A DNA stretch of 63,389 bases, counting the filler, from Licmophora abbreviata (taxonomy: Eukaryota): the NCBI GenBank assembly GCA_900291995.1. It is 20 parts of 20 records of this genome, joined end to end, with 100 filler letters (N's around TTAATTAATTAA, not from the genome) between each part and the next. Parts side by side here need not be neighbours in the genome. Positions count along the whole stretch, not along the records: positions 41,061 to 44,589 come from OLMU01002904.1; 19 more parts are not named here. One strand, given 5' to 3'. Below the pieces are notes generated by a model. The model worked only from the letters and a program-made list of their open reading frames with translations, was not told the origin of the DNA and searched no databases. Positions within the stretch are counted from its first letter, which is position 1. Every line of letters begins with the position of its first letter. The position numbers were made by a program, and so were the translations under genes. This document shows positions 35,354-48,889 of the stretch, in pieces.

Positions 35354-36979
35354 GACTTCGACCGCAAGGAACCCTTCACACCCGAAGACCTTGGCGTGAT
35401 CGAAAAAAAGATGAAGGAAATCATCAACCTACGCGATTCCGTCCGCACCGAGATCTGGGACCGCGCCCGCGCCATCAAGCACTATGAGGACAGCGGCGAA
35501 CCCTTCAAGGTCGAACTGATCGAGGCCATTCCCGGCACCGAACCCCTGCGCATGTACTGGCACGGCCACTGGCAAGACCTCTGCCGCGGCCCCCACCTTC
35601 AGAACACCGGCCAAGTCCCTGCAGACGCTTTCAAATTGATGTCCGTGGCCGGCGCCTATTGGCGCGGCGACTCCAATCGCCAGATGTTGCAGCGCATCTA
35701 TGGCGTGGCCTTCCTCAATCGCGAAAAACTCAAGGATTACCTCACCTTCCTCGAAGAAGCTGAGAAACGGGACCACCGCAAGCTCGGTCGCGAGATGGAC
35801 CTCTTCCACATGCAGGAAGAAGCCCCCGGTCAGATCTTCTGGCACCCCAACGGCTGGACGATCTACACCACCCTGCAAGATTACATGCGCCGCCAACAAC
35901 GCCGCGGCGGCTATGTCGAGGTAAACACACCACAAGTTGTCGATCGCAAGCTTTGGGAAGCCTCGGGGCACTGGGACAAATATCAGGAACACATGTTCAT
36001 CGTCGAAGTCGACGAAGACCACGCCCGCGAGAAATCCATCAATGCTCTCAAGCCGATGAACTGCCCTTGCCATGTGCAGATCTTCAATCGCGGGCTGAAA
36101 TCCTACCGCGATCTGCCCTTGCGCATGGCGGAATTCGGCAGCTGCAACCGCTACGAACCCTCAGGCGCCTTGCACGGCATCATGCGGGTGCGCGGCTTCA
36201 CTCAGGATGACGCGCATATCTTCTGCCGCGAAGATCAGATCGAGGCGGAAACCAAGAAATTCATTGGGTTTTTGTCCGAAATCTACCGCGATCTCGGCTT
36301 TGCGGACTTCAAGGTAAAGTTTTCGGATCGCCCGGAAAAACGCGCCGGAAGCGATGACGTCTGGGACAAATCGGAAAGCGCCCTGAAGGCCGCAACAGCC
36401 GCCGCCGGAGCCGATTTCGAACTGAACCCCGGAGAAGGCGCATTTTATGGCCCGAAGCTGGAATTCGTGCTGACCGATGCAATCGGACGGGACTGGCAAT
36501 GCGGCACCCTGCAGGTGGATTTCGTGCTGCCCGAGCGGCTGGACGCCACCTATATCGCCGAGGACGGCGCCAAGCACCGACCGGTCATGCTGCACCGAGC
36601 CGTTCTTGGGAGTTTCGAGCGTTTCATCGGCATTCTGATCGAGGAACATGCCGGCAAGCTGCCCTTCTGGATGGCACCGCGCCAAGTTGTTGTGGCCTCA
36701 ATCGTATCCGAGGCGAACGCCTATGTTCAGGATGTGGTCGCCCGGCTAGTCGCCGCAGGCGTCCGGGCCGAAGCCGATATCCGCAACGAGAAGATCAATT
36801 ACAAGGTCCGTGAACATTCCGTCGGCAAGGTGCCCGTTATCCTGGCCTGCGGCATGAAGGAGGTCGAGGACGGCACGGTGTCGCTGCGCCGCCTAGGTGA
36901 GAAGCAGAGCACGGTTCAGCCTCTCGCGGATGTCACAGAGGCGTTGAAACGCGAGGCGACCCCCCCGGATCTTCTGTAA
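35354..36979 (+). CDS. thrS: Threonine-tRNA ligase, 5'-truncated
   Basis: [57 protein letters not shown]. Confidence 0.98.
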
Positions 36980-37229
36980 CAATCGCACGAATGGCCGGGC
37001 GAGACAGCGTCACAAACGATGACGCCCGGACAAAAAATCCAGAAAAATACCTTGTTTTCAATGGGCGGCCCCTAGCGGGCCGCTCACTTATTTTGACGCA
37101 TCCGTGTCTGACGTGCTCGTGAATGGTTGTGCGAGGCCAGATCAGCTTAACGTCAAATTGTCGCAGCGCTTGCATCGATCCGGTGCGCCGATGCCGCGAC
37201 ATGCCATGCAAACCTTAGGGAGACATGTA

Positions 37230-37532
37230 ATGTCGAAATCCATGAAGACACTTGCCATTGCCGGCGCCATGACCGCCGCTCTGGCTGCACACACCATACC
37301 TGCCGCTGCCGAAACCAAAGAGAAATGCTACGGCGTATCGCTTGCAGGCCAGAACGACTGCAAGGCCGGCGCCGGCACGACCTGCGCCGGAAGCTCGACG
37401 GCTGACTATCAGGGCAACGCCTGGACCCTCGTCGACAAGGGCACCTGCACCGAGATCGACCTGCCCGAGATGGCAGACGGCACCGAGCGCAAAGGGTCTC
37501 TGGAACCGCTGGAGCGCGATCTGCCCGCCTGA
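37230..37532 (+). CDS. bufA1: Bufferin-type (DUF2282/BufA1) RiPP precursor, periplasmic
   Basis: Signal peptide plus [22 protein letters not shown]...W..V.KGTC four-Cys pattern; RBS gggag; directly upstream of an MNIO gene. Confidence 0.9.
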
Positions 37533-37546
37533 TCGGCACATCATGC

Positions 37547-37581
37547 AGGGATACGTGGGCGCACGCGCCCCGCGTATCCCT
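37547..37581 (+). terminator. Stem-loop between precursor and MNIO genes (attenuator or mRNA-stabilising hairpin)
   Basis: agggatacgtgggcgc / gcgccccgcgtatccct inverted repeat with no U-tract. Confidence 0.55.
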
Positions 37582-37610
37582 CAATTGCACGCACCAGACC
37601 GAGATCCGTC

Positions 37611-38468
37611 ATGCTTGATACCTCCGGCCACCCCATGCATCTGCCCACAGCCCCCGGCGTCGGCTACAAACCCCAGCATTTTCAATCCATCATGGATGAT
37701 CCCACCCCGGTAGCATGGCTTGAAATTCATGCCGAAAACTATATGGGCGATGGCGGCCGACCGCTGGCGCAACTCAGACATCTTGCCGAACGGTTTCCGA
37801 TCTCGGTGCATGGTGTCGGGCTGAGCATCGGCGGCGAGGCGCGGCTTGATCCCGAGCATCTTGCGCGGCTCAAGGCACTGTGCGGATGGCTGCAACCCGT
37901 CAGCTTTTCCGAACATCTGGCGTGGTCCACCCATGACAGCCACTTCATGAACGATCTCCTGCCGCTGCCTTATACCGCCACCACCCTTGGGCGGGTGACC
38001 GATCACATCGACGAGCTGCAAGAGGCGCTTGGCCACAGGATGCTTCTGGAAAACCCCTCGAGCTATCTCGCCTTTGCCGAAAGCACCTTCTCCGAGACGG
38101 ATTTCCTGACCGAGATCGCGCGCCACACCGGCTGTGGCCTGCTGCTGGATGTGAACAACGTGTTCGTTTCCGCCGTCAATCTTGCGCTTGACCCCCGGGC
38201 GTATATCGATGCGTTCCCCTTGGCGCATGTGGGCGAAATCCACCTCGGCGGCCATGACGAGGATAAGGACGACCACGGCGCACCGCTGCTGATCGACAGC
38301 CATGGGCGCGCGGTGGCCGATCCAGTTTGGGCGCTTCTGGACCATACCCTTCAAAGGTCAGGTCCACGCCCGCTTTTGATCGAATGGGACGCCAATGTGC
38401 CGGACTGGCCCGTGCTTGCGCAAGAGGCGCGCCGCGCCGCCCGCGCCCTTGAAAAGGTGGCGGCATGA
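37611..38468 (+). CDS. bufB: Multinuclear non-heme iron oxidase (MNIO, DUF692)
   Basis: [53 protein letters not shown]. Confidence 0.95.
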
Positions 38469-39358
38469 CGATCAGTCAAACAAGTTTTCACGATGCGCTT
38501 TTCGATCGCGCGACACCGGTGCCGATGGGCCTTCAGGATGGACAAGGCCGGCCCGCCGGGCGCCGGTTCAACATCTATCGCAATAACGTTGCGGTTTCCC
38601 TGACCGAGGCGCTGGAGCTTGGGTTTCCTGCGGTCAAATCGCTGATTGGCGACGCAAATTTCAGGAAAGTATCTGGCCTTTTCCTGCGCCAAACACCGCC
38701 ATCNNNNNNNNNNNNNNNNNNNNNNNNNNNNNNNNNNNNNNNNNNNNTTAATTAATTAANNNNNNNNNNNNNNNNNNNNNNNNNNNNNNNNNNNNNNNNN
38801 NNNAAAGTATCTGGCCTTTTCCTGCGCCAAACACCGCCATCGGCGCCCATGATGATGCTTTATGGCAAGGAATTTCCGGACTTCCTCGAGAGTTTCGCGC
38901 CCTTGTCGGATATCCGGTATCTGGGGGATGTCGCCCGCCTCGAGCAAGCGCAGCGCGAGACGTATCATGCCGCCGACGCACACGCCCTTGCCCCCGAGGC
39001 CCTGGCGCAGCTCCCGCCCGACACGCTGGCGCAGTCCCGGTTCCGCCTTGCCCCGGCGATACGGTTGATCCGCTCGGTCTGGCCCGTTCATGACATCTGG
39101 CGGTTCGCGATCATGGATGGCGCACCGAAACCCACTGCTCAGGCGCAAGATGTTATGGTCACGCGCCCAGAATATGATCCCGAGTTGCTTGTCCTGCCTC
39201 AGGGCGGGGCGGCTTTTGTCGCCGCAATTCTGGCGGGGGCCACACTCACCCAGGCCTGCGAGGCAGGCGAAATCGACGCAAAGGCTTTCGATCTTGCCGC
39301 AATGCTTGGCCTGCTGTTGCAGAGCGGCGCGATAATCGCCGTGGAACCCGAGGTTTGA
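38465..39358 (+). CDS. bufC: MNIO partner protein (DUF2063/HvfC-BufC like); linker inserted with a duplicated overlap
   Basis: [31 protein letters not shown]; a 38-nt overlap on both sides of the linker joins the halves. Confidence 0.88.
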
Positions 39359-39361
39359 GAG

Positions 39362-39910
39362 ATGACCATCAGCGCAGCCTACACCACCGTCACAGCCCCT
39401 CTGACCCGGTCGGACTGGCTTTTGTCAATCATGGCCAGATTTCTGTTTGCGGCACTTTTCCTGATGTATTTCTGGGTGTCCGGCCTGACCAAGCTCGGCG
39501 ATGGCGTGCTTGGGATCTTTTCGCCATCCGTCGGCGCCTATGCCCAGATCTTCCCCCGGGCGATGGAGGCCGTGGGGTATGACGCGAGCCAGTTGAGCCT
39601 GTTTCATACACTCGTCGTTCTAGCAGGAACCTGGGCCGAGTTCGTTCTTCCCCTGATGATCGTGATCGGTCTTCTGACCCGGCTGGCAGCCCTTGGGATG
39701 ATCGGTTTTGTCGTGGTGCAGACCTTCACCGACCTTTACGGGCATGGCGCGATCAGCGAGCCGGCGACGGTTGGCGCCTGGTTCGATAAGGCCCCGGATT
39801 CACTGATCCTGGATCAACGGGCTCTGTGGGTGTTCCTGTTGGTGACGCTTGTGGTGAAGGGGGCGGGGCCGTTGTCGCTGGACCGTGTTCTGTTTGGCGA
39901 CAGGGCATGA
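39362..39910 (+). CDS. DoxX family membrane protein (BufD-like)
   Basis: FWVSGLTK, EFVLP...GLLTRLAA, GAGPLSLD. Confidence 0.9.
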   Translation: MTISAAYTTVTAPLTRSDWLLSIMARFLFAALFLMYFWVSGLTKLGDGVLGIFSPSVGAYAQIFPRAMEAVGYDASQLSLFHTLVVLAGTWAEFVLPLMIVIGLLTRLAALGMIGFVVVQTFTDLYGHGAISEPATVGAWFDKAPDSLILDQRALWVFLLVTLVVKGAGPLSLDRVLFGDRA

Positions 39911-39952
39911 CCCGGGCCCGGCGCATGAGACGTGACGCGACCCGCAAAGGGT

Positions 39953-40267
39953 TCAGCCCAACAGCGCCTTTTGCACATCCCGGCCCCAGCCCAGATACAG
40001 CTTGCCATTGGCATCGATCAGGGGGCGCTTCATCAGGGTCGGATGATCTGCCAGCAATTCCAAGGGGTTGCGCTGACGCTCTACCTCATTTAGCTGACGC
40101 CATGTGGTCGAGCGGGTGTTGAGCAACGCCTCGCCGAAGGTGGCATGAGCGGATTTCAGCAGATCGACCGGCACACCTTCGTCCCGGACATCGACGAAGC
40201 GGGCATCCGCCAAGGATTTCAAAGCCTTGCGGCACGTATCGCAGGTTTTCAAGCCATACAGTATCAT
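39953..40267 (-). CDS. ArsC/Spx/YffB family thioredoxin-fold protein
   Basis: YGLKTCDTCRKA, LLN..STTWR, HPTLMKRPLI. Confidence 0.9.
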   Translation of the reverse strand: MILYGLKTCDTCRKALKSLADARFVDVRDEGVPVDLLKSAHATFGEALLNTRSTTWRQLNEVERQRNPLELLADHPTLMKRPLIDANGKLYLGWGRDVQKALLG

Positions 40268-40281
40268 CGCAACCCCCATGT

Positions 40282-40297
40282 TTAATGCCTGTTTAAC
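40282..40297 (+). promoter_or_regulatory. CtrA-box-like site
   Basis: TTAA-tgcctgt-TTAAC is an exact TTAA-N7-TTAAC match in the arsC-like/cspA divergent region. Confidence 0.55.
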
Positions 40298-40453
40298 GGG
40301 CATTTGATTCGAGGTCACGTGTGTTTTGCTTGCATTTTACATGACCCGTGTAATCATCTTCCGCGTGGCATTTGGTGTTGCTGTTGCGATTTTTTCCAAC
40401 GGTAGCAGGCAGATGCGGCGGGAAGATGAAGCGACTCAGCAAGGAGAGACGGA

Positions 40454-40660
40454 ATGCCCACAGGCACCGTTAAGTGGTTCAATACGACCAAGGGTTACGG
40501 GTTTATCGCACCGGATGAAGGCGGCAAGGACGTGTTCGTTCACATTTCGGCGGTCGAGAGATCGGGGCTCACGGGGCTCGCGGACAACCAGAAAGTTGGC
40601 TACGATTTGCAGGATGGCCGCGACGGCCGGCAAATGGCGACTGACCTCAAGCTATTGTAA
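40454..40660 (+). CDS. cspA: Cold-shock protein (CspA family)
   Basis: GTVKWFN..KGYGFI, DVFVHISA; RBS aaggag. Confidence 0.95.
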   Translation: MPTGTVKWFNTTKGYGFIAPDEGGKDVFVHISAVERSGLTGLADNQKVGYDLQDGRDGRQMATDLKLL

Positions 40661-40737
40661 TCCATAGCATTTCCGTCATGCTCAGGTGCGGCGGCGCCCA
40701 TCCAGCGCCGCCCGTTCCATGCTGTGCGATCACGCCG

Positions 40738-41123
40738 TCAGAAACAGCCCTTCACGCCTTCGGGGCAGGTGCGGGCCTGTTTCACCGTGCGGTGCGAATA
40801 ATGTTTGGCAACGGGATGGCGCTTGGCCTGCTGATAGGTCTGGTGCTGATTGGGCACGCCGCAGCAAACGGCGCCGGCGACAGACACCGGCTGCAACCCG
40901 GCGGGGCAGAAATTGTGTTTGGATTCAAAGGCATAGACCGGAGTTTGGGCCAATGCAGGGNNNNNNNNNNNNNNNNNNNNNNNNNNNNNNNNNNNNNNNN
41001 NNNNTTAATTAATTAANNNNNNNNNNNNNNNNNNNNNNNNNNNNNNNNNNNNNNNNNNNNTTGGGCCAATGCAGGGGCGGCCAGACAGGCAAGACCTGCG
41101 GCAAGGGTCAGGGACAGACGCAT
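40738..41123 (-). CDS. Small secreted Cys-rich protein (~89 aa once the linker is removed)
   Basis: Overlap ttgggccaatgcagggg on both sides of linker 40961-41060 joins signal peptide MRLSLTLAAGLACLAAPALA to QTPVYAF..NFCPAGLQP..CCG..CPEGVKGCF; RBS gagg. Confidence 0.78.
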
Positions 41124-41219
41124 GGGCACCTCGTTAACTGTTGATCGTGAACGGCTTTCTTGCAGGGTCAGCCTAGCCGCTGGTCAAGGATCGGTCAAAC
41201 CTTGCCTGCGCCCGCTTTG

Positions 41220-41299
41220 GTACGACCCGTACGAAACCGACACGCGTTCAGGACCAAATCCGAGGTCAAACCCGGAATTTGTGTCCATCCCGTACACAA
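41220..41299 (-). repeat. Dispersed ~80-bp intergenic repeat, copy 2 (inverted relative to copy 1)
   Basis: Reverse complement ttgtgtacgggatggacacaaa...gtcctgaacgcgtgtcggtttcgtacgggtcgtac. Confidence 0.85.
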
Positions 41300-41300
41300 C

Positions 41301-41717
41301 TCAGCCCGCGACCTGCCATCCGAGCGTCCGCGCCGCCATCACCCCGGCCCAGGCCGACACACCGGTCAGGACAGCACCCCATGTCACATCCGCGATCACC
41401 ATCCGCCACGACCAGCCGCGCAGGGTGGCGAGGTTGGTGAACTCGTAGGTGCCGTAGGCCAGCACCCCGAGGGCCGCGCCGGTCAGGAGGGCTGTGCCCG
41501 GCGCATCGGCGCGCAGCGCCGGGAGCGAGACGAACCACAACACGCCCGCGACATAGACGAGATAGAAGAGGGCCGCAGGCCCGAGGCGCAGCTCATCAGC
41601 CATCAGATCGCCGATATGGGACTCGAAGAGCGGCTTCATGATGGTCGACAACATAATCGCATCGAGGATCAGAAACACCCCGGCCGTCACGAGGTAGAGA
41701 AGGAGAAGATGCAGCAT
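41301..41717 (-). CDS. DUF2177-like membrane protein
   Basis: FLILDAI.L, AALFYLVY, GVLAYGTYEFTNLATL.GW...DVTWG. Confidence 0.88.
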   Translation of the reverse strand: MLHLLLLYLVTAGVFLILDAIMLSTIMKPLFESHIGDLMADELRLGPAALFYLVYVAGVLWFVSLPALRADAPGTALLTGAALGVLAYGTYEFTNLATLRGWSWRMVIADVTWGAVLTGVSAWAGVMAARTLGWQVAG

Positions 41718-41752
41718 GACGGCCCTTTCGGCGCTTGGGGTATTATTGGGGG

Positions 41753-41780
41753 ATACGGGCGCCGGGGGTGGGGTGGATCG
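41753..41780 (-). promoter_or_regulatory. Candidate RpoE(ChrR)-type ECF promoter for the DUF2177-like gene
   Basis: Minus strand cGATCC, 17 nt, CGTAT; close to the recalled TGATCC-N16-CGTA consensus, with spacing one base long. Confidence 0.4.
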
Positions 41781-41838
41781 GTTTTAGGGGTGGTGGGAAT
41801 GTCACTTCGAATAATCTCACCACAACAACTTTTAAAAA

Positions 41839-43482
41839 TTATTCGTAAATCTCTTGTTCCAGTGCCTCAAAGAATGACGCCACCTCTGACCAAGCCATAG
41901 TTTCACTGGATTCTTCGAAAACACCGTCCTTTAGGTTCCAGCCTGGGAAAGCAGAGACTTGGAAACTACTTTTCTCAGGGCGGTAAAATTCAACGCCGTG
42001 AGACAAAAATGACGAAAAGCATTTATGTGCGTCTTTTCCTGTGCCAATTTTGCTGAAGGCCGGTGACGTATCCCAACCCCGTTTTTCAACTTCATACAAT
42101 AAGATAGCATCCCGGCTCATAAAGTCCGACTCTCTGTAGCGCCGCCGGAATTCACTCAAAGAAATAGAAACTAGACCGCGCTGTTTTCCATCAATTAGCA
42201 TCAGGTCAATAAGAGGGTTCCCTAGTGCAAAACACCTTTCGGATAATTCTTTGCCGAATTTGATGTTTAGATAAAAAGCCGCATATAAAAACCACAACAA
42301 AGACCCAATGTCTGCTCTTCTGACACAAACGTCGGCTCCCCATCTTACGACGCGCTTCTGGTTTACTTCTATGCTGCTAAATCGTTCGCAGATCCCTAAA
42401 TAAATTGGAAAAATCCATCTAGCATTATGCGGTGCCGCAAATATTAACCGTTGCAGGTATTCAAGAACAAGTTCGCGATGCGCGTTTGAAGCGAGTTGCC
42501 TACCAAACTTTTTAAGCGAATATCCGACCACGTTCGAGTTCGGGTGATCAGACATGCATCTATATAATTGATCAAAGAATGCTTCGACTGCACGCGTACC
42601 ACTCAACCTTGAAACAAAATCAAAAGATCTTTGCCAATTTGAAGGGGCAAAATCTAACCCACCATCGAGCCGAGTTTTATAGTCATTAAGACGCAACTCC
42701 ATTCGTTGTATGGCCCAAACAAATTTGCTCTGTGCTAACTCTGCCTCTTCAATGCGAAATATTCCAAACTGGTAATCATCTATATTGTGGAAGAAAGCTG
42801 AAGGATTGATCTCACTATGATTTTTTACCATGTCGTAATCAATTCTAGAGAGAATTAGTTCTGATATTATACGCGACGTATCTGGCCCAATTGGTATTCC
42901 CACTGTCTGCTTTGCATTGCAATTTCGTGTGAGGGTATCCAACTCATCACTCCAATGACTCTTCAAAGATTTATTATGAAATCGCTTCTTAGCCTCGGTT
43001 TTACCAAGTACAGCCCACGGAATTGAGTGGGTATAGATCGTTCCATAAAAGCGATTAATATCTAGGGTCAGCACTTTGGGAAACGATCCAGCCATATGCT
43101 TTAAGTTCTGGCGCTTTGTAGCCAATGAAGCTGTATGAATGGCTCGACCAGAGGCTGTTTTATTTGGAAACGTGGGGCGCGAACCCGAGCTTGAAGAAAG
43201 CTTGTAGACCCTTTGAAAGTTACTCCACTGCGCGGCTATAAACTCCGACAATATACAATAATTAACTGGATTTATAATTCCGAAAGTTCTCAAATTTCCT
43301 TGATAAGTTGAACCGTCAAAGTTCAGCATCACGCTATCATGCTTGGTTCTTTGATTACTCAAATTCGCCAAAATAGAACTGGCCGCACTGGAATAGTTCC
43401 TCGTCGCAAACACGGGAGGCAACTCCACAGGGTAAAACCCTCTGTCTAGGAGACGGACAAGTCTGGTGCGCTTGGAACTCAT
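41839..43482 (-). CDS. Abi/DRT-like (putatively anti-phage) reverse transcriptase with alpha-helical C-terminal domain
   Basis: LDINRFYGTIYTHSIPWA (D141), QTVGIPIGPDTSRIISEL, HNIDDY (D235/D236), LRLNDYKT; N-terminal LL.RGFYP.ELPP.F. Much more AT-rich than its neighbours. Confidence 0.9.
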   Translation of the reverse strand: MSSKRTRLVRLLDRGFYPVELPPVFATRNYSSAASSILANLSNQRTKHDSVMLNFDGSTYQGNLRTFGIINPVNYCILSEFIAAQWSNFQRVYKLSSSSGSRPTFPNKTASGRAIHTASLATKRQNLKHMAGSFPKVLTLDINRFYGTIYTHSIPWAVLGKTEAKKRFHNKSLKSHWSDELDTLTRNCNAKQTVGIPIGPDTSRIISELILSRIDYDMVKNHSEINPSAFFHNIDDYQFGIFRIEEAELAQSKFVWAIQRMELRLNDYKTRLDGGLDFAPSNWQRSFDFVSRLSGTRAVEAFFDQLYRCMSDHPNSNVVGYSLKKFGRQLASNAHRELVLEYLQRLIFAAPHNARWIFPIYLGICERFSSIEVNQKRVVRWGADVCVRRADIGSLLWFLYAAFYLNIKFGKELSERCFALGNPLIDLMLIDGKQRGLVSISLSEFRRRYRESDFMSRDAILLYEVEKRGWDTSPAFSKIGTGKDAHKCFSSFLSHGVEFYRPEKSSFQVSAFPGWNLKDGVFEESSETMAWSEVASFFEALEQEIYE

Positions 43483-43529
43483 AATCGGACTTCACCCTAC
43501 TTCCAAAATACAATCAATAGAAGAATGCG

Positions 43530-43685
43530 GCCCCAGACGCGCCCGGCCCGAGGGTGGGCGCCTGAAACGGTGGGTAGAAGCCACTGGATTGCAGCGAGGC
43601 TGCCGGGTCTTTCCATTCGTGACGGTGCAGACGCGCCCGCCCATGGGGGCGGGTCGGGCGCGGCCCGGCGGTGCCGCCGGGCGGG
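43530..43685. repeat. GC-rich multi-hairpin element upstream of the RT (REP/MITE-like or ncRNA)
   Basis: Direct repeat cagacgcgccc (43534, 43628), each copy opening a hairpin (43539-43561, 43633-43661), plus hairpin gcccggcgg/ccgccgggc (43663-43682). Confidence 0.65.
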
Positions 43686-43710
43686 ACGTCGAGCAAGGGT
43701 CTGCGCCCCC

Positions 43711-44589
43711 CTACCCCTCGATAACCCCCTGAAACTCCCGCCATTCGCCCTTGGACATGCCTGAGGTTTCCTGCGTGACCTCTTCACCTTTCAACATCCG
43801 GCGCACACACTCAAGGGCTGTGGACGAGAGCGTAGCGCCGCCCATGCGGTAATCCTCGAAGGCGCGGTAGGCGGCGGGGACCCAATCGGCGACGATGGCG
43901 CAGATCGCGTCGGCATAGACGCGGATCTCGTACTGGGCATGGGCATCGGCGCGCAGGCGCAGGAAATGCAGCAGGTTGTGCAGATCGACCTTCCAGTACC
44001 ATTGCGTATAGATATTGGCGGGCAGGTTCATGCGGGCCAGTTCGCGGGCCAGACCCTGCTGGCCCTCGTCCGAGATCATCGCCTCGTAATGGTCATAGCA
44101 GCGCATCGCGTCGTCGCGCAGGATGCGCAGGACACGCTCGGCCTCGTCGCCCGAAAGGGCCTCGCCCCGGCCCTGATTGTTGGTGGTGGATTGCGCGGCG
44201 AGCGCGTCGGGGGCGGGAATGTAGAATTCGCGGTCGAGGATCGAGTAGCGGGCGGAGTATTCATTGACGTTGGCGGTGCGGTGGCGGATCCACTGGCGGG
44301 CGACGAAGACGGGCAGTTTGACGTGGAGTTTGATCTCGCACATCTCGAACGGGGTGGAGTGCCAGTGGCGCATCAGGTAGCGGATCAGCCCCTCGTCATT
44401 GGAGACCGATTTGGTGCCCTTGCCATAGGAGACGCGGGCGGCCTGACAGATGGCGGCGTCGTCGCCCATGTAGTCGACCACCCGGACGAAGCCGTGATCG
44501 AGCACCGGGTGGGCGGTGTAGAGATGCGCCTCCATCCCCGGCGAGACGGCCCGGAGGGTCTGGGCCGGGGAGCTGCGGAGCGTGTCGAT
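43711..44589 (-). CDS. thyX: FAD-dependent thymidylate synthase, 5'-truncated
   Basis: [31 protein letters not shown] (ThyX motif), ARELAR..LP, HAQYEIR. Confidence 0.97.
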
Positions 44590-44689: not shown

Positions 44690-46953
44690 CCATCGGGGGG
44701 AGTCGTTGATCACGTGACCAAAGTGGCCTTTCATACTGCAACGAGTAGCAGCAGTCCAAGTGGACCGCGATGGACCAACGAGCCGGTGGCCAGTTCGCTT
44801 CGACTTTCAGCGCAGAGTTTGGTGGAGATATGGAGTCTTTCACAGCAGCAGGAACCATCCAAGATCTATTGGCCGCCATTTGTCGAAGCTGCCTGGAGAG
44901 CTTGTGTCGAGTCTAGTCTTGGCAGCGAAGATCTGCTCTCAGGTCTGCTGTTGTTGATATCGACATCGTCGTGTCGACTTGGCGTTCGAAGATGTCTGAA
45001 CTCTATTCTGCTTCCCACGAGTGACTCAACACAGCAATCTGACTCTTCGCTTGCTACCCTACTTCAAGGCTGTCGTGTGTTGATTGCGTCCTTGTTGAAT
45101 TACTGTCAGCACGTAAGTAGAAAAGCACGGACCAGATCAGATCGATTTGCTCGATCGATACGATGGTATCCTCTCACCCACTACTTTCCACTACCACTGT
45201 CCTTCTACACCAGAACAACTTGATGGTCGCCACCACTTCCGCGGCGCTCTTACACTCTCTTCTCAGTGACCGCCAAGATGTTGCGACGCACGACGAACTG
45301 TCACGTGCACTTTGGTCGGCCGTGTCCTCGTTTCCTTTGGAACGGTTGCTAGATGGCGTTGTCAAACTGTCGACATCGTCCCGTGCTTGTCAGCCTCTCT
45401 TGCTGCATATGATGGACACTGTTGATCTGATCATGTGCTACGCGGATGACAGTAGTGCGTTCTTTTCGAAAGTCGGAAGACAAAGAGTTGAATCGCTCAT
45501 TGGCGTAATGAGCAGCGCGGGAACGACGCCAGGAGTTTCTGCCAATGGAAATGCCAGGCAAGATGAGGATGAAACACCCCCTACCAACAACTTGTCGCGG
45601 CTTGGCGATAGTCAAACTTCTTCGTTCCTGCCTTACCAAGAATCGAGAGACTGTCATGGGCTCGACCGACAAATCAAAATGGCTGCCGCCACCTCTCTTG
45701 CTCGTATGGGGTATTCAGACAGCAGTACCGTCGACGACGAGAACTCCGAACTTCTTCGGTCACGCATCCGTTCTGCGTTGTATGACTATGTGGCTGGCCT
45801 CGGGATAGAAAGAACGGCTCATGAGACGTCGTACACTTACACATGTCGGTCGGTTCGACTGTACGCGCTGCTCGGGTCCTGTTCACGGGAAAATGAAGCA
45901 CTCATCGCTTCAGTTGTAGCAGAATCGAACGAAAGCTACAGAAAAGAGCTGAACGACCGTCGACAAGACTTGCGAAACCAAGAGCAGCAGTTGGAAAAAT
46001 CTCGTCAGCACGCTCAAGCTACTATCGCAGAGAAGAACAAATACAAGAGCGCCATACGATCGCAAGCTGTCGTGTTGGAACGAGACGCGAACCGTAGACA
46101 GAAACAAGTTACTACCAAAGTCGAGCAACTCGTACAACTACATGCTTCCGAACGTGCCAGGGCTGAGGCTCGACTCGAAAAAATTCTTTCACAGGCAAAA
46201 GAAGTTGAAGCCATGAGAGTCGAGTCGGTGCGTCAAGCAGAAGCATCACGAGCGGCCGAAGGGGACGCCAAGACGGAACTTCGCCAAACTGTGGCCAAGC
46301 TGGAAGCAGTCCAAAGCGAGTTGAACGAAGGAAAAGCATTAGAAGTGACTCGGCGGGCAGAGTGGGATCATGCCCAGCAAGAGCTTTGTACCGCTCGGGA
46401 CGCGCTTCAAGGCCTCGAGACCCGCTACGATGCCGGTTGCAAGGAGCTTCATACGACGCAACGAGACCTTTCTGAAATGAAGAACTCGTACGGACATCTC
46501 CAAGACGAACTAGAGGTTGTGTTCTCCAACCTGTCCGCTCTCGCACAGATCTACGAGGCCAAGGAGACAGAAGTCGCAACGATTGTCGAACTGAAGGACC
46601 GCGCCGTCCAAGAAGCTCGTCGACAGTCCGACGAAGAGATCCAGCGCAACGAGGAGCTTGCCGAGAATTTGACCCGCGTGGAGCTAGAAAATGATCGGCT
46701 CAAGAAGAAGCTCGCTCGGGCAAAAGAGAAGCTTGAAAGGGAACGTCAGGCTAGACAAGACGACGAGGCTCGACGAAAGCGTTCCGGGCCGATCTCTTAC
46801 ATCAATCAAATGCACAGCTCGAGGTCTTCAGAGCGATCAACTGATCGATCCGACAAGGATTCTCGATCGGAAAGAAAGGCACTGGCGGGAAAGGAAAACA
46901 GCCGCTCTCATTCTTCATCCTCAAGAGACTATTCACGATCGGCTCGCTCGTAG
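44690..46953 (+). CDS. Eukaryotic hypothetical protein with long C-terminal coiled coil; intron 45113-45213; probably 5'-partial
   Basis: A phase-0 GTAAGT...CAG intron joins ORF 44714 to ORF 45163 in frame; E/Q/R/K heptad-rich region. Confidence 0.7.
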
Positions 46954-47016: not shown

Positions 47017-48889
47017 TCATTGTGTTCTTTTACTCTTAGCCTCCTCAACTTTCCTTGGCGATATTGGCCCGAAACGAGTTTGATGCAGCCACACGCCGGC
47101 CAATCGCAGCGTGTTGAAAACTCCGAATCCCATCCAAACACCGGCCAAACCGAACTTCTGCGGCAAGGTGTTCAGAGCCCAAAGGCATCCCGCGGTGGCG
47201 ACTACAGTGCTCAGCGACAGCTGCAAGAAGTTCCCGCAACCCACCATGACACCTTCACCAATGAAGACAAGCCCGTTTATTATCTGATAGATGCTGGCAA
47301 GATATGAAGGCATCAATGCAGCGTCTCGTACTTCCTGCAGTGGCGTCGACTTATGCAAAAAGGGAAGCAGGGCAATCTGAAGTCCTCCGAGCAAGATGCC
47401 TAAGATGAATCCCCAGCTCATAAGTCGGTTGACAGTGCGTTGCGCAGCCACGACGCCACCCGAAACGTGTCGCCCCCGTTTATCCTTCTTCTCCACTAGT
47501 TCATTAGGAACCACAGTCTGTGCCACCGTTGACAGAGCTAGCAACACAATTCCTCCAACTTGAAATACCTGAATTGCCATCGCGTGCGCTGCTGCCGCAA
47601 CACCCGTCTCGTCAATCGACTGTGTTACCCGCGTCACGGCGAGAAACGTCAAGTTGAGCGCGAAGTTTCGCAATTGCAGGGCCGCGCCTCCTTTGAGGAG
47701 GGGTTGCAATTTGGTCCAAGACGGAAGTCGGAAAACCTTTCGCCATCGAATCATTTGCTTCTTCCGGAGGAGTGTTAAATAGGTGACAGCCGAGACGATC
47801 TCAGCCGCCAAAGTCGCTAGTGCGGCGCCAGGAACCCCGAGGGCAAGGGAGAAAATAAGAATAGGATCGAGAACGGCGTTGAATATGTTCGCAAACAGAC
47901 TGATCTGAACTGGAGTAACGGTATCCAGCACCCCTACGTACACAGAAAAATCAATTCGAAATGAGCACGGGCGAGCACTCCAATAACGAGCGCGCGAGAG
48001 CGCTGGAGGAGTGACGTACCTCGAAACGCCGAAAACCCAATCAATGACATGAGCGATGGCAAGAACGCGAAGGATCGAATGAGAAGGTATGGCTTGGCGT
48101 ACTGTAATGCAGGAGCACCATCTACGAGAGAAGCAGGAGATGGGTCAAGGATGAGTCGGCTATAGGGGCAATGCGTCTCCTTCCCTACAGCACACGTTGC
48201 ATACCTTTCAGCACGGAGGATAGAACTTTCTCAGGATTGAGAAACAGAAGAGGACTGCCAATTAGAGCAATCAGAAGTCCTACCGCAAGAGCCTGGGAGA
48301 CTGCATCTTGCAGGCCCTCTTGATCACCCTTTGCATTCTCTTTGGAAACTAGCGTAGCAGTAACTGAGGGGAGAAAGGAAGCCAACCAGAAAGCGCTATT
48401 GAACACCTGGTTCGCAGCGGCCTGGCCAGCGACCGCCAGAGCGTTGCCCATTCGATTCACCCAAAAGAGGTCGACCGCTCCAATCAGCGGATTGATGGCA
48501 AAGTTTGCAATGCACGGCAACGCGATCTTAATAAGTCGCCGATCGAGTTCGTCCATCGAAGGCCAGAAGCTCACTTCTTCATCTGATCTCGAGCCTCCTC
48601 GCAATGCAGAAACTTCTTCCGACGGCTCTTGTTCGTCATCGTCGCTGTCGAGCACCTCCGCGTTCGACACTCCTAAGGGCGCAAGTACACACGCATGTTG
48701 CCTCGCTGCTCTCTGTTGGAGTGGTAGTGCGGGACCATTCTTCCGTACTTCTCGGTTCAGGCGACTGTCAGGACGATTCTGTGAAGTTCCGAGTGACGCA
48801 AAACACAACACTCCAAAGTTTTCCCCAACTCCCATCCAAGAGACCCAAAGCGCTACAAGCAAAGAGTACCTTGGACGCAGCATGGTCAA
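47017..48889 (-). CDS. MATE (DinF-like) transporter with N-terminal targeting presequence; introns 48122-48204 and 47934-48019
   Basis: IALP..ANFAINPL.GAVD; splicing restores FSAFRGVLDTVTP; NAVLDPILIF..LGVPGAALAT. Confidence 0.9.

Follow-up and report, generated by a model that had tools for sequence, protein, structure and literature searches.

What kind of enzyme is encoded by a lone, AT-rich reverse transcriptase (RT) gene between thyX and a DUF2177 gene, and is it a new kind of anti-phage system or a member of a known one? The gene lies in a stretch of 63,389 nucleotides from the Licmophora abbreviata assembly GCA_900291995.1 (hereafter the window). A sequence-only reading had marked 41790-43530, a span that encloses the RT open reading frame (ORF), as a candidate new anti-phage system of an uncharacterised clade. 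Based on sequence profiles and a predicted structure, we conclude that it is a DRT6-type anti-phage defence gene, of an already characterised family and not a new kind of system. We consider it likely that this ORF codes for a defence RT in class 1 of the UG/Abi enzymes, of the DRT6 (UG12) type, and that the gene was acquired horizontally into a variable slot just downstream of thyX. The protein has the family profile and the fold of this type, its catalytic residues are intact, the gene stands alone, its composition is foreign and its distribution is patchy.

Family assignment

The protein matches the PADLOC Drt6 profile (PDLC03748) along nearly its full length, with residues 7-519 aligned to profile positions 3-496 of 511 (E 1e-118, 395.5 bits), and this profile leads the next PADLOC model by 111 bits. 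The models that follow are two named 'Drt4' (PDLC02179, 284 bits; PDLC02177, 265 bits), the UG15 model PDLC03752 (204.5 bits), RT_UG30 (171 bits), RT_UG14 (130 bits), AbiK (112-113 bits) and AbiP2 (89.5 bits). Among PDB sequences searched with phmmer, the best match is 9wy8_A, a maltose-binding protein (MBP) fusion, at 157.8 bits over residues 7-506, ahead of DRT4/UG15 chains (~99 bits), AbiK (63 bits) and Abi-P2 (50 bits). Of 8000 database proteins scored, 670 match the RT at E<=1e-3, the best at 93% identity.

Structural comparison was based on an AlphaFold2 (AF2) model of the RT, made with 41 homologues, that has a mean predicted local distance difference test score (pLDDT) of 89.6 and a predicted template modelling score (pTM) of 0.91. 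The first-ranked Foldseek match is 9wy8_A, 'Cryo-EM structure of the hexameric DRT6' (E 8.8e-25), with a template modelling (TM) score of 0.78 for the query (TMq) and 0.86 for the target (TMt), a root-mean-square deviation of 3.2 and 26% identity. UG15/DRT4 structures reach TMq 0.72-0.76, AbiK 0.61-0.67, Abi-P2 0.60 and AbiA 0.43. The sequence-only reading was therefore right at the level of class when it described a UG/Abi-type RT related to AbiK and Abi-P2, as the class 1 profiles and the TMq of 0.60-0.67 indicate.

UG12 was named 'DRT type 6' by Mestre et al. 2022; expressed heterologously in E. coli, it protected moderately against T5 and ZL-19, an effect abolished in an RT-motif mutant (PMC9226505). 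For the DRT6 of Sphingopyxis sp., Wang et al. report abortive infection, an oligomeric protein and DNA synthesis without a template, the product being covalently bound to the protein (PMC12783706). According to the same source, this DRT6 turns toxic when ORF55, a DNA-binding protein of T5, is co-expressed and also when sbcB is knocked out, and the inactive mutant is D223A/D224A (PMC12783706). Two preprints cite a paper on the cryo-EM structure of DRT6 (BBRC 791:152955). Because the protein matches the Drt6 profile and DRT6 already has published phage and biochemical data, the claim of a new system in an uncharacterised clade is not supported; the best structural match is itself the DRT6 hexamer. 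Comparison with the PADLOC profiles gave a near full-length match to a characterised family, a result that refutes novelty but not function. Since annotation profiles already recognise the gene as DRT6, and protection, biochemistry and structure have been published, the gene carries little weight as a discovery.

The names of the profiles require some care. On many relatives, PDLC02177 and PDLC02179 nearly match the score of Drt6. For three such representatives (P0143, P0255 and P0134) the best PDB match is 9wy8, at 275-476 bits (303-476 bits for proteins on which the 'Drt4'-named models score highest) versus 93-120 bits for UG15, and on this basis the two 'Drt4'-named models behave as UG12 models. 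The automatic labels 'DRT4' and 'DRT6' may be interchangeable for UG12-type proteins.

Predicted fold and catalytic residues

The reading frame is intact and of full length, and its start and end match those of its homologues. Translation and the AF2 model bear out the description of an intact 547-aa ORF with RT motifs and a helical C-terminal half. The motifs are DINRFYG (residues 141-147), YTHSIPW (150-156), GPDTS (199-203), HNIDDYQ (232-238, containing D235/D236) and LNDYKT (265-270). In the model, the N-terminal lobe is mixed alpha/beta, residues ~283-541 are nearly all helix, and a disordered tail spans residues 536-547. The phmmer alignments start within the fingers/palm lobe, at residue 7 for 9wy8 and residue 19 for 9ltm, and extend to residues 503-506; in Foldseek, the helical repeat lobe superposes on DRT6, DRT4 and AbiK. 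The layout is like that of the Sphingopyxis sp. DRT6 (9wy8), which is also a stand-alone gene for a protein of ~540 aa with an RT lobe and a helical repeat lobe, and which shares the catalytic DD and the THSIPW and GPDTS motifs in addition to being the best profile, PDB-sequence and structure match.

Residue conservation was evaluated in an alignment of 41 sequences (the query and 40 homologues at 41-93% identity). There are 68 invariant columns, all catalytic Asp included, and D141, H152, D182, D235, D236 and R65 are invariant. The invariance of the catalytic residues and of the His and Asp residues indicates that the polymerase site and the His/Asp pair are under constraint.

The His/Asp pair is of interest in relation to DRT4. 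In DRT4, priming takes place on Tyr125, the 3' base of the primer stacks on the YxDD tyrosine, Tyr238, and His160 (the catalytic His) together with Asp192 forms an RNase site specific for guanosine (10.64898/2026.10.21.760695). The RNase is turned on by phage single-stranded DNA-binding protein (SSB) plus dNTPs, and a flexible C-terminal subdomain is involved in trigger recognition (10.64898/2026.10.21.760695). DNA is contacted by Lys24, Arg75, Ser333, Lys336 and Tyr337 (10.64898/2026.10.27.754916). In the phmmer alignment with 9ltm, the numbering of which is that of the DRT4 papers, D240/D241 correspond to D235/D236 of the query, H160 to H152 (in YTHSIPW), D192 to D182 (in HWSDELD) and R75 to R65, and Y238 of YxDD corresponds to N233.

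The HNIDD subclade

Close relatives of the protein are few. In a database clustered at 90% identity, one relative (P0002) is 93% identical and the others among the matches listed are at <=55%. At E<=1e-3, a library clustered at 50% identity yields 3137 representatives, of which 323 reach E<=1e-30; a few of these are close (54, 42, 39 and 36% identity), after which there is a drop to ~30% identity and <=183 bits. The subclade of the query, here the near or HNIDD clade, is ~26-30% identical to core DRT6 and has at least 120 clusters at 90% identity on record. Drt6 is the top model in 5/5 near representatives and in 3/3 near-clade genome loci. Among core representatives it is top in 29 of 35, and UG12-like 'Drt4' models are top in the other six.

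One difference between the two groups is in motif C, which was counted by regular expression (1 near and 32 core sequences without a motif call were left out). The residue two positions before DD in the 120 near-clade sequences is N in 87, A in 13, S in 12, T in 3, G in 2, H in 2 and Q in 1, and in no case Y or F. In the 104 core sequences it is Y in 50, F in 20, H in 18, L in 6 and N in 3, with singletons making up the rest, so that 70/104 have Y or F. One position further upstream, H is found in 119/120 near sequences versus R in 99/104 core sequences. The consensus is thus H-[NAS]-I-DD in the near clade versus R-[YFH]-x-DD in the core.

The groups also differ at the C-terminus and in their hosts. 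Over the last 25 residues, near-clade proteins are more acidic (mean net charge +6.3 acidic versus +2.7 in the core), and a Tyr falls within the last three residues in 105/113 near versus 58/124 core sequences. All 15 near-clade loci in a species-level genome collection are alphaproteobacterial by their record titles, whereas the core group extends also to Bacteroidota, Gammaproteobacteria, Verrucomicrobiota, Cyanobacteria and other taxa. Compared with core DRT6, then, the clade of the query has a uniform acidic, Tyr-ending tail and is alphaproteobacterial at 15/15 named genome loci.

Many DRT6-like proteins end with an acidic stretch and an aromatic residue, and a core DRT6-like representative (P0190) ends with ...DDDNIPF. 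To judge from such sequences, the acidic and aromatic end of DRT6-like proteins could be a docking tip.

It is possible, although we regard it as doubtful, that these sequence features mark the HNIDD clade as a functionally distinct DRT type. If this were true, loss of the primer-stacking Tyr (to Asn, Ala or Ser) could alter which nucleotides the untemplated DNA contains or how long it becomes. The acidic tail (...W-E-N-Y-D/E) could dock a host exonuclease or a phage SSB, in the manner of the C-terminal tail of SSB itself, and such docking would be an on/off switch unlike those of DRT4 and core DRT6.

A single gene in a variable slot

Three genes (DUF2177, RT and thyX; Table 1) are encoded on the RT contig, each of them on the minus strand. 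The GC content of the RT gene is 0.431 and its GC at third codon positions (GC3) is 0.42, versus a GC3 of 0.847 for thyX and 0.842 for the DUF2177 gene; the AT-richness relative to the flanks that was remarked on from the sequence alone is therefore real. RT GC is likewise below that of the flanks in 15/15 near-clade loci.

The flanks of the gene, 41061-41796 and 43721-44589, match the nearest relative (contig C4 of genome G001) at 96% identity. Between them, G001 has 790 bp of other DNA in place of 1924 bp, which bears out the earlier proposal of horizontal acquisition into the thyX-DUF2177 interval. No RT-like DNA was found in the 41 relatives searched. Homologues of the RT protein (E<=1e-20) occur in 9/401 genomes of the order. 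Six of the nine are of the core type, and the other three, with identities of 52, 42 and 40%, belong to the near clade. Within the genus, 1/12 genomes has a homologue, which is of the core type. A tblastn search of phage records gave no match to the RT at E<=1e-10. Plasmid records gave ten matches, none above 31% identity and each of the core DRT6 type (two were profiled). Neither a target-site duplication nor terminal inverted repeats were found on the two sides of the RT, where the repeats are short and chance-like.

Comparison of the thyX-DUF2177 locus across relatives revealed that the slot varies in content. In 5/5 relatives with thyX and DUF2177 on one contig (G001, G002, G017, G015 and G022, syntenic slot loci L013-L017), a differing low-GC cargo lies directly after the thyX stop, on the thyX strand (Table 1). 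The 178/211-aa proteins in G001 and G017 have no Pfam and no PADLOC match, and their N-terminus looks hydrophobic from the sequence. The start of the cargo overlaps the thyX stop in G002, G017 and G022. The G017 slot also holds a Y1-transposase-like ORF (Pfam Y1_Tnp, E 1.1e-4) beside the gene for this protein.

Table 1 Coordinates of the RT gene, its parts and neighbours in the window, and cargo of the corresponding slot in relatives
Feature	Position	Strand	Remarks
DRT6/UG12-type class 1 UG/Abi RT gene (P0001)	41839..43482	-	547 aa, ATG start, intact
RT-like fingers/palm lobe, residues 1-282	42637..43482	-	mixed strand/helix in AF2 model
Motif A Asp D141 (DINRFYG), then YTHSIPW (H152)	43015..43062	-	D141, Y150, H152 and W156 invariant, 41 aligned
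HWSDELD, D182	42937..42957	-	W177, S178, L181 and D182 invariant; D182 aligned with DRT4 D192 (9ltm)
Catalytic motif C, HNIDDYQ (D235, D236)	42769..42789	-	D235, D236 and Y237 invariant; Asn233 at the YxDD tyrosine position
C-terminal alpha-helical repeat (alphaRep-like) lobe, residues 283-535	41878..42636	-	helices H283-292 to H531-541, pLDDT mostly >90
Disordered acidic C-terminal tail (...EQEIYE), residues 536-547	41842..41877	-	pLDDT <50; Y546 nearly invariant
thyX (flavin-dependent thymidylate synthase)	43711..44535	-	Pfam Thy1, E 4.6e-56; upstream of RT, same strand
thyX-RT spacer	43483..43710	-	228 bp, GC 0.68; REP-like element at ~43620-43690
DUF2177 membrane protein	41301..41717	-	Pfam DUF2177, E 1.7e-41; downstream of RT, same strand
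Segment differing from G001 (RT and spacer; variable thyX-DUF2177 slot)	41797..43720	.	1924 bp versus 790 bp in G001; GC 0.459
Slot cargo of G002, 537-aa GmrSD_N protein		thyX strand	Pfam E 2.2e-32; PADLOC PDC-M55C E 9.5e-83
Slot cargo of G022, 413-aa AAA ATPase		thyX strand	
Slot cargo of G015, 265-aa trypsin-like protease		thyX strand	
Slot cargo of G001 and G017, 178/211-aa proteins	L013:2356-2991(-); L015:1868-2404(+)	thyX strand	53% identical

The genes around the slot are otherwise those of a housekeeping region. In G001, 13 kb on each side of the slot contain PhaC, ThrRS, an MbnB-like gene, DUF2063, DoxX and ArsC before thyX, and DUF1194 twice, MarR, Sdh5 and UvrB beyond it, and no integrase, cas or Avd gene was found in these 13 kb on either side. 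This sustains the earlier observation that nothing of the sort lies nearby as far as the syntenic flanks of G001 are concerned; the RT's own contig, at 3529 bp, is too short to carry that statement far.

The description of a lone gene also held. A search of the RT contig against Rfam returned nothing at E<=1, and the spacer between thyX and the RT folds no better than its shuffles (z -1.04), with no sign of a DRT non-coding RNA (ncRNA). Across the 15 near-clade loci there is no conserved partner, since no neighbour family is common to more than three, and those three (L040-L042) have the same upstream neighbours. A functional link between thyX and the RT was considered and rejected: thyX or DUF2177 adjoins 0/88 other DRT6-like loci, which indicates that the linkage to thyX is positional and not functional.

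Three near-clade homologues came from the search of the order. Two of them have defence-type genes around them, namely GajB and Mrr in one case (L020) and a type III restriction endonuclease (REase)-like gene in the other (L019); the third (L018) has cobW and S1-domain neighbours. On the Agrobacterium tumefaciens plasmid pAt1D1460 (L028, 1-4692), a core DRT6-like RT comes immediately after, and on the same strand as, genes annotated as AAA family ATPase and ATP-dependent helicase; the three may form a multi-gene variant, or the site may be no more than a defence island.

The spacer contains an element like a repetitive extragenic palindrome (REP; ~50 nt, GC-rich, 43620-43690) that recurs at many places in numerous relatives, as short matches of 79-95% identity. 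Another multi-copy repeat, of ~95 nt at 41213-41317, lies next to the 3' end of DUF2177, overlaps it slightly and matches six other loci of G001. A simple scan of 41650-43800 for promoters and terminators returned one promoter-like site, on the plus strand, and one terminator-like site inside DUF2177, with no promoter-like site on the RT strand; these counts are below the shuffled means, and the scan is therefore uninformative.

Assembly support

The window is a chain of 21 short contigs with spacers of N44, 12 nt and N44 between them, and the adjacency of genes across these spacers is unproven. The RT contig itself covers 41061..44589 (3529 bp), and the preceding contigs (35354-40960), together with the RT contig to 44589, keep the gene order of G001:C4. 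Contigs from public runs support the arrangement. One of 12.8 kb (X1) spans the whole RT stretch, a second (X2) covers 41061-43929, and a third that was not flagged as a possible source (X6) covers 41061-43521 with one mismatch. Because these contigs cross the junctions, the RT arrangement is not an assembly chimera. Several other public-run contigs end loosely at 43631-43676, within the REP-like element. No RNA runs are listed among the public runs that contain the RT stretch, and one run among them bears the label 'mixed culture metagenome'.

The contigs after the RT contig (44690-63389) have a GC of 0.50-0.525, versus 0.58-0.68 in the contigs before it, and depart from the gene order of G001. 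They include a MatE-type ORF at 48185-48889 and a 596-aa ORF at 45163-46953 without a Pfam match. The assembly may be mixed, with these contigs derived from a second organism.

Alternative explanations

Several results weigh against assigning the gene to DRT6. The query is distant from the characterised DRT6, with 26% identity in the structural alignment, and no Pfam family matches the RT at E<=0.1. On the Drt6 profile, the five near representatives score 344-420 bits versus 454-602 bits for 35 core representatives. Where 9wy8 has R-Y-V-DD the query has HNIDD, so that the primer-stacking Tyr of YxDD is replaced by Asn in the query and is never aromatic in its clade, and the priming Y125 of DRT4 aligns with S119. 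The published case of RT-dependent abortive protection is the Sphingopyxis DRT6 (PMC9226505, PMC12783706). An unrooted maximum-likelihood tree of 55 rows was made by a quick LG+G4 search, with no outgroup and without the exact Sphingopyxis DRT6; in it, a branch of ~1.0 substitutions/site parts the 15 near from the 40 core rows with a Shimodaira-Hasegawa-like approximate likelihood ratio test (SH-aLRT) value of 100. Given a separating branch of this length, the near clade could be a sister and not a nested member of DRT6. The HNIDD clade would then be a separate type with the same fold but a differing DNA product, priming residue or phage trigger, an explanation that we consider unlikely. It would account for the branch, the lower profile scores, the H-[NAS]-I-DD motif in 119-120/120 members, the acidic Tyr-ending tail and the alphaproteobacterial loci, set against several phyla for the core. 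Yet DRT6 is by far the closest type in both sequence profile and structure, and the remaining catalytic and DNA-contact residues are conserved. The core is itself not uniform where YxDD has its Tyr, since 18 of 104 sequences have H there, six have L and three have N, and a tree without an outgroup does not separate sister from nested member.

The remaining explanations fare less well. Membership in DRT4 (UG15), AbiK or Abi-P2 would fit the class 1 fold and motifs that these families have in common with the query, and is extremely improbable in our view. DRT4 of E. coli (9ltm, 9vdo, 9l9s and 21ou) shares its architecture with the query, which retains DD, H152/D182 and R65, and the 'Drt4'-named PADLOC models score well; these, however, behave as UG12 models, the NCBIfam Drt4 equivalog NF041749 reaches 168.8 bits versus a cut-off of 450, and the query has Ser119 and Asn233 at the positions of Tyr125 and Tyr238. 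AbiK of Lactococcus and Abi-P2 of a P2-like prophage (7r06, 7z0z and 7r08) resemble the query in the motif region and the helical C-terminal lobe. Their PADLOC models match only residues 43-334 at 89-113 bits (43-299 for AbiK and 49-334 for AbiP2) and their identity is 16-17%, so that the query is in neither family, and the TM scores of all three are below that of DRT6. That the gene is merely carried along, inactive or in decay and with no present defence role in its host, is very unlikely; one such case would be a polymerase that lost its activity together with the YxDD Tyr. The Asn in place of the stacking Tyr, the blank promoter scan on the RT strand and the strongly foreign composition are what such a gene might show, and a gene of foreign composition may be poorly expressed. 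Against this, the frame is intact with a homologue-like start and end, the 68 invariant columns hold across members of 41-93% identity, the change to Asn, Ala or Ser is clade-wide and not a private lesion, and a 93%-identical copy exists elsewhere. There is next to no chance that the protein is a retron, group II intron or diversity-generating retroelement (DGR) RT whose RNA or partner was missed. The RT-domain matches in this direction are weak (group_II_RT_mat, 21.7 bits; retron St85, 16.7 bits) and far under the cut-offs of 300 and 235, and Foldseek gave TMq <=0.36 for group II intron, retron and DGR RTs, as also for DRT2 and DRT9. In the AF2 model a helical repeat lobe takes the place of a thumb or maturase domain, the Rfam search of the contig found no intron, msr/msd or DGR RNA, and neither the contig nor the syntenic flanks of G001 have an Avd or effector gene.

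Proposed mechanism

As a DRT6-type defence gene, the RT can be given a working model by analogy with DRT6 and with DRT4, from which the protein-primed untemplated single-stranded DNA (ssDNA), the SSB-type trigger and the RNase are taken. The protein would form a hexamer of two trimers and would constitutively make short, untemplated ssDNA, with a side chain of the protein itself as the primer. As long as the cell is uninfected, a host 3'-5' exonuclease of the SbcB type would keep this ssDNA short. Upon infection, an SSB-like protein of the phage would bind the ssDNA. The killing step may be accumulation of ssDNA, the action of an intrinsic RNase site at His152/Asp182 as in DRT4, or both. Arrest or death of the cell before phage release would amount to abortive infection.

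Significance

The locus is a clean example of one defence gene in an interval between core genes, with the matched site available in a relative of 96% identity. Among the syntenic relatives, the interval after thyX turns over low-GC cargo, and it would constitute a small and previously unremarked defence hotspot in the genus. For the family, the HNIDD subclade would be a natural comparison when asking how untemplated class 1 RTs select nucleotides and recognise their triggers.

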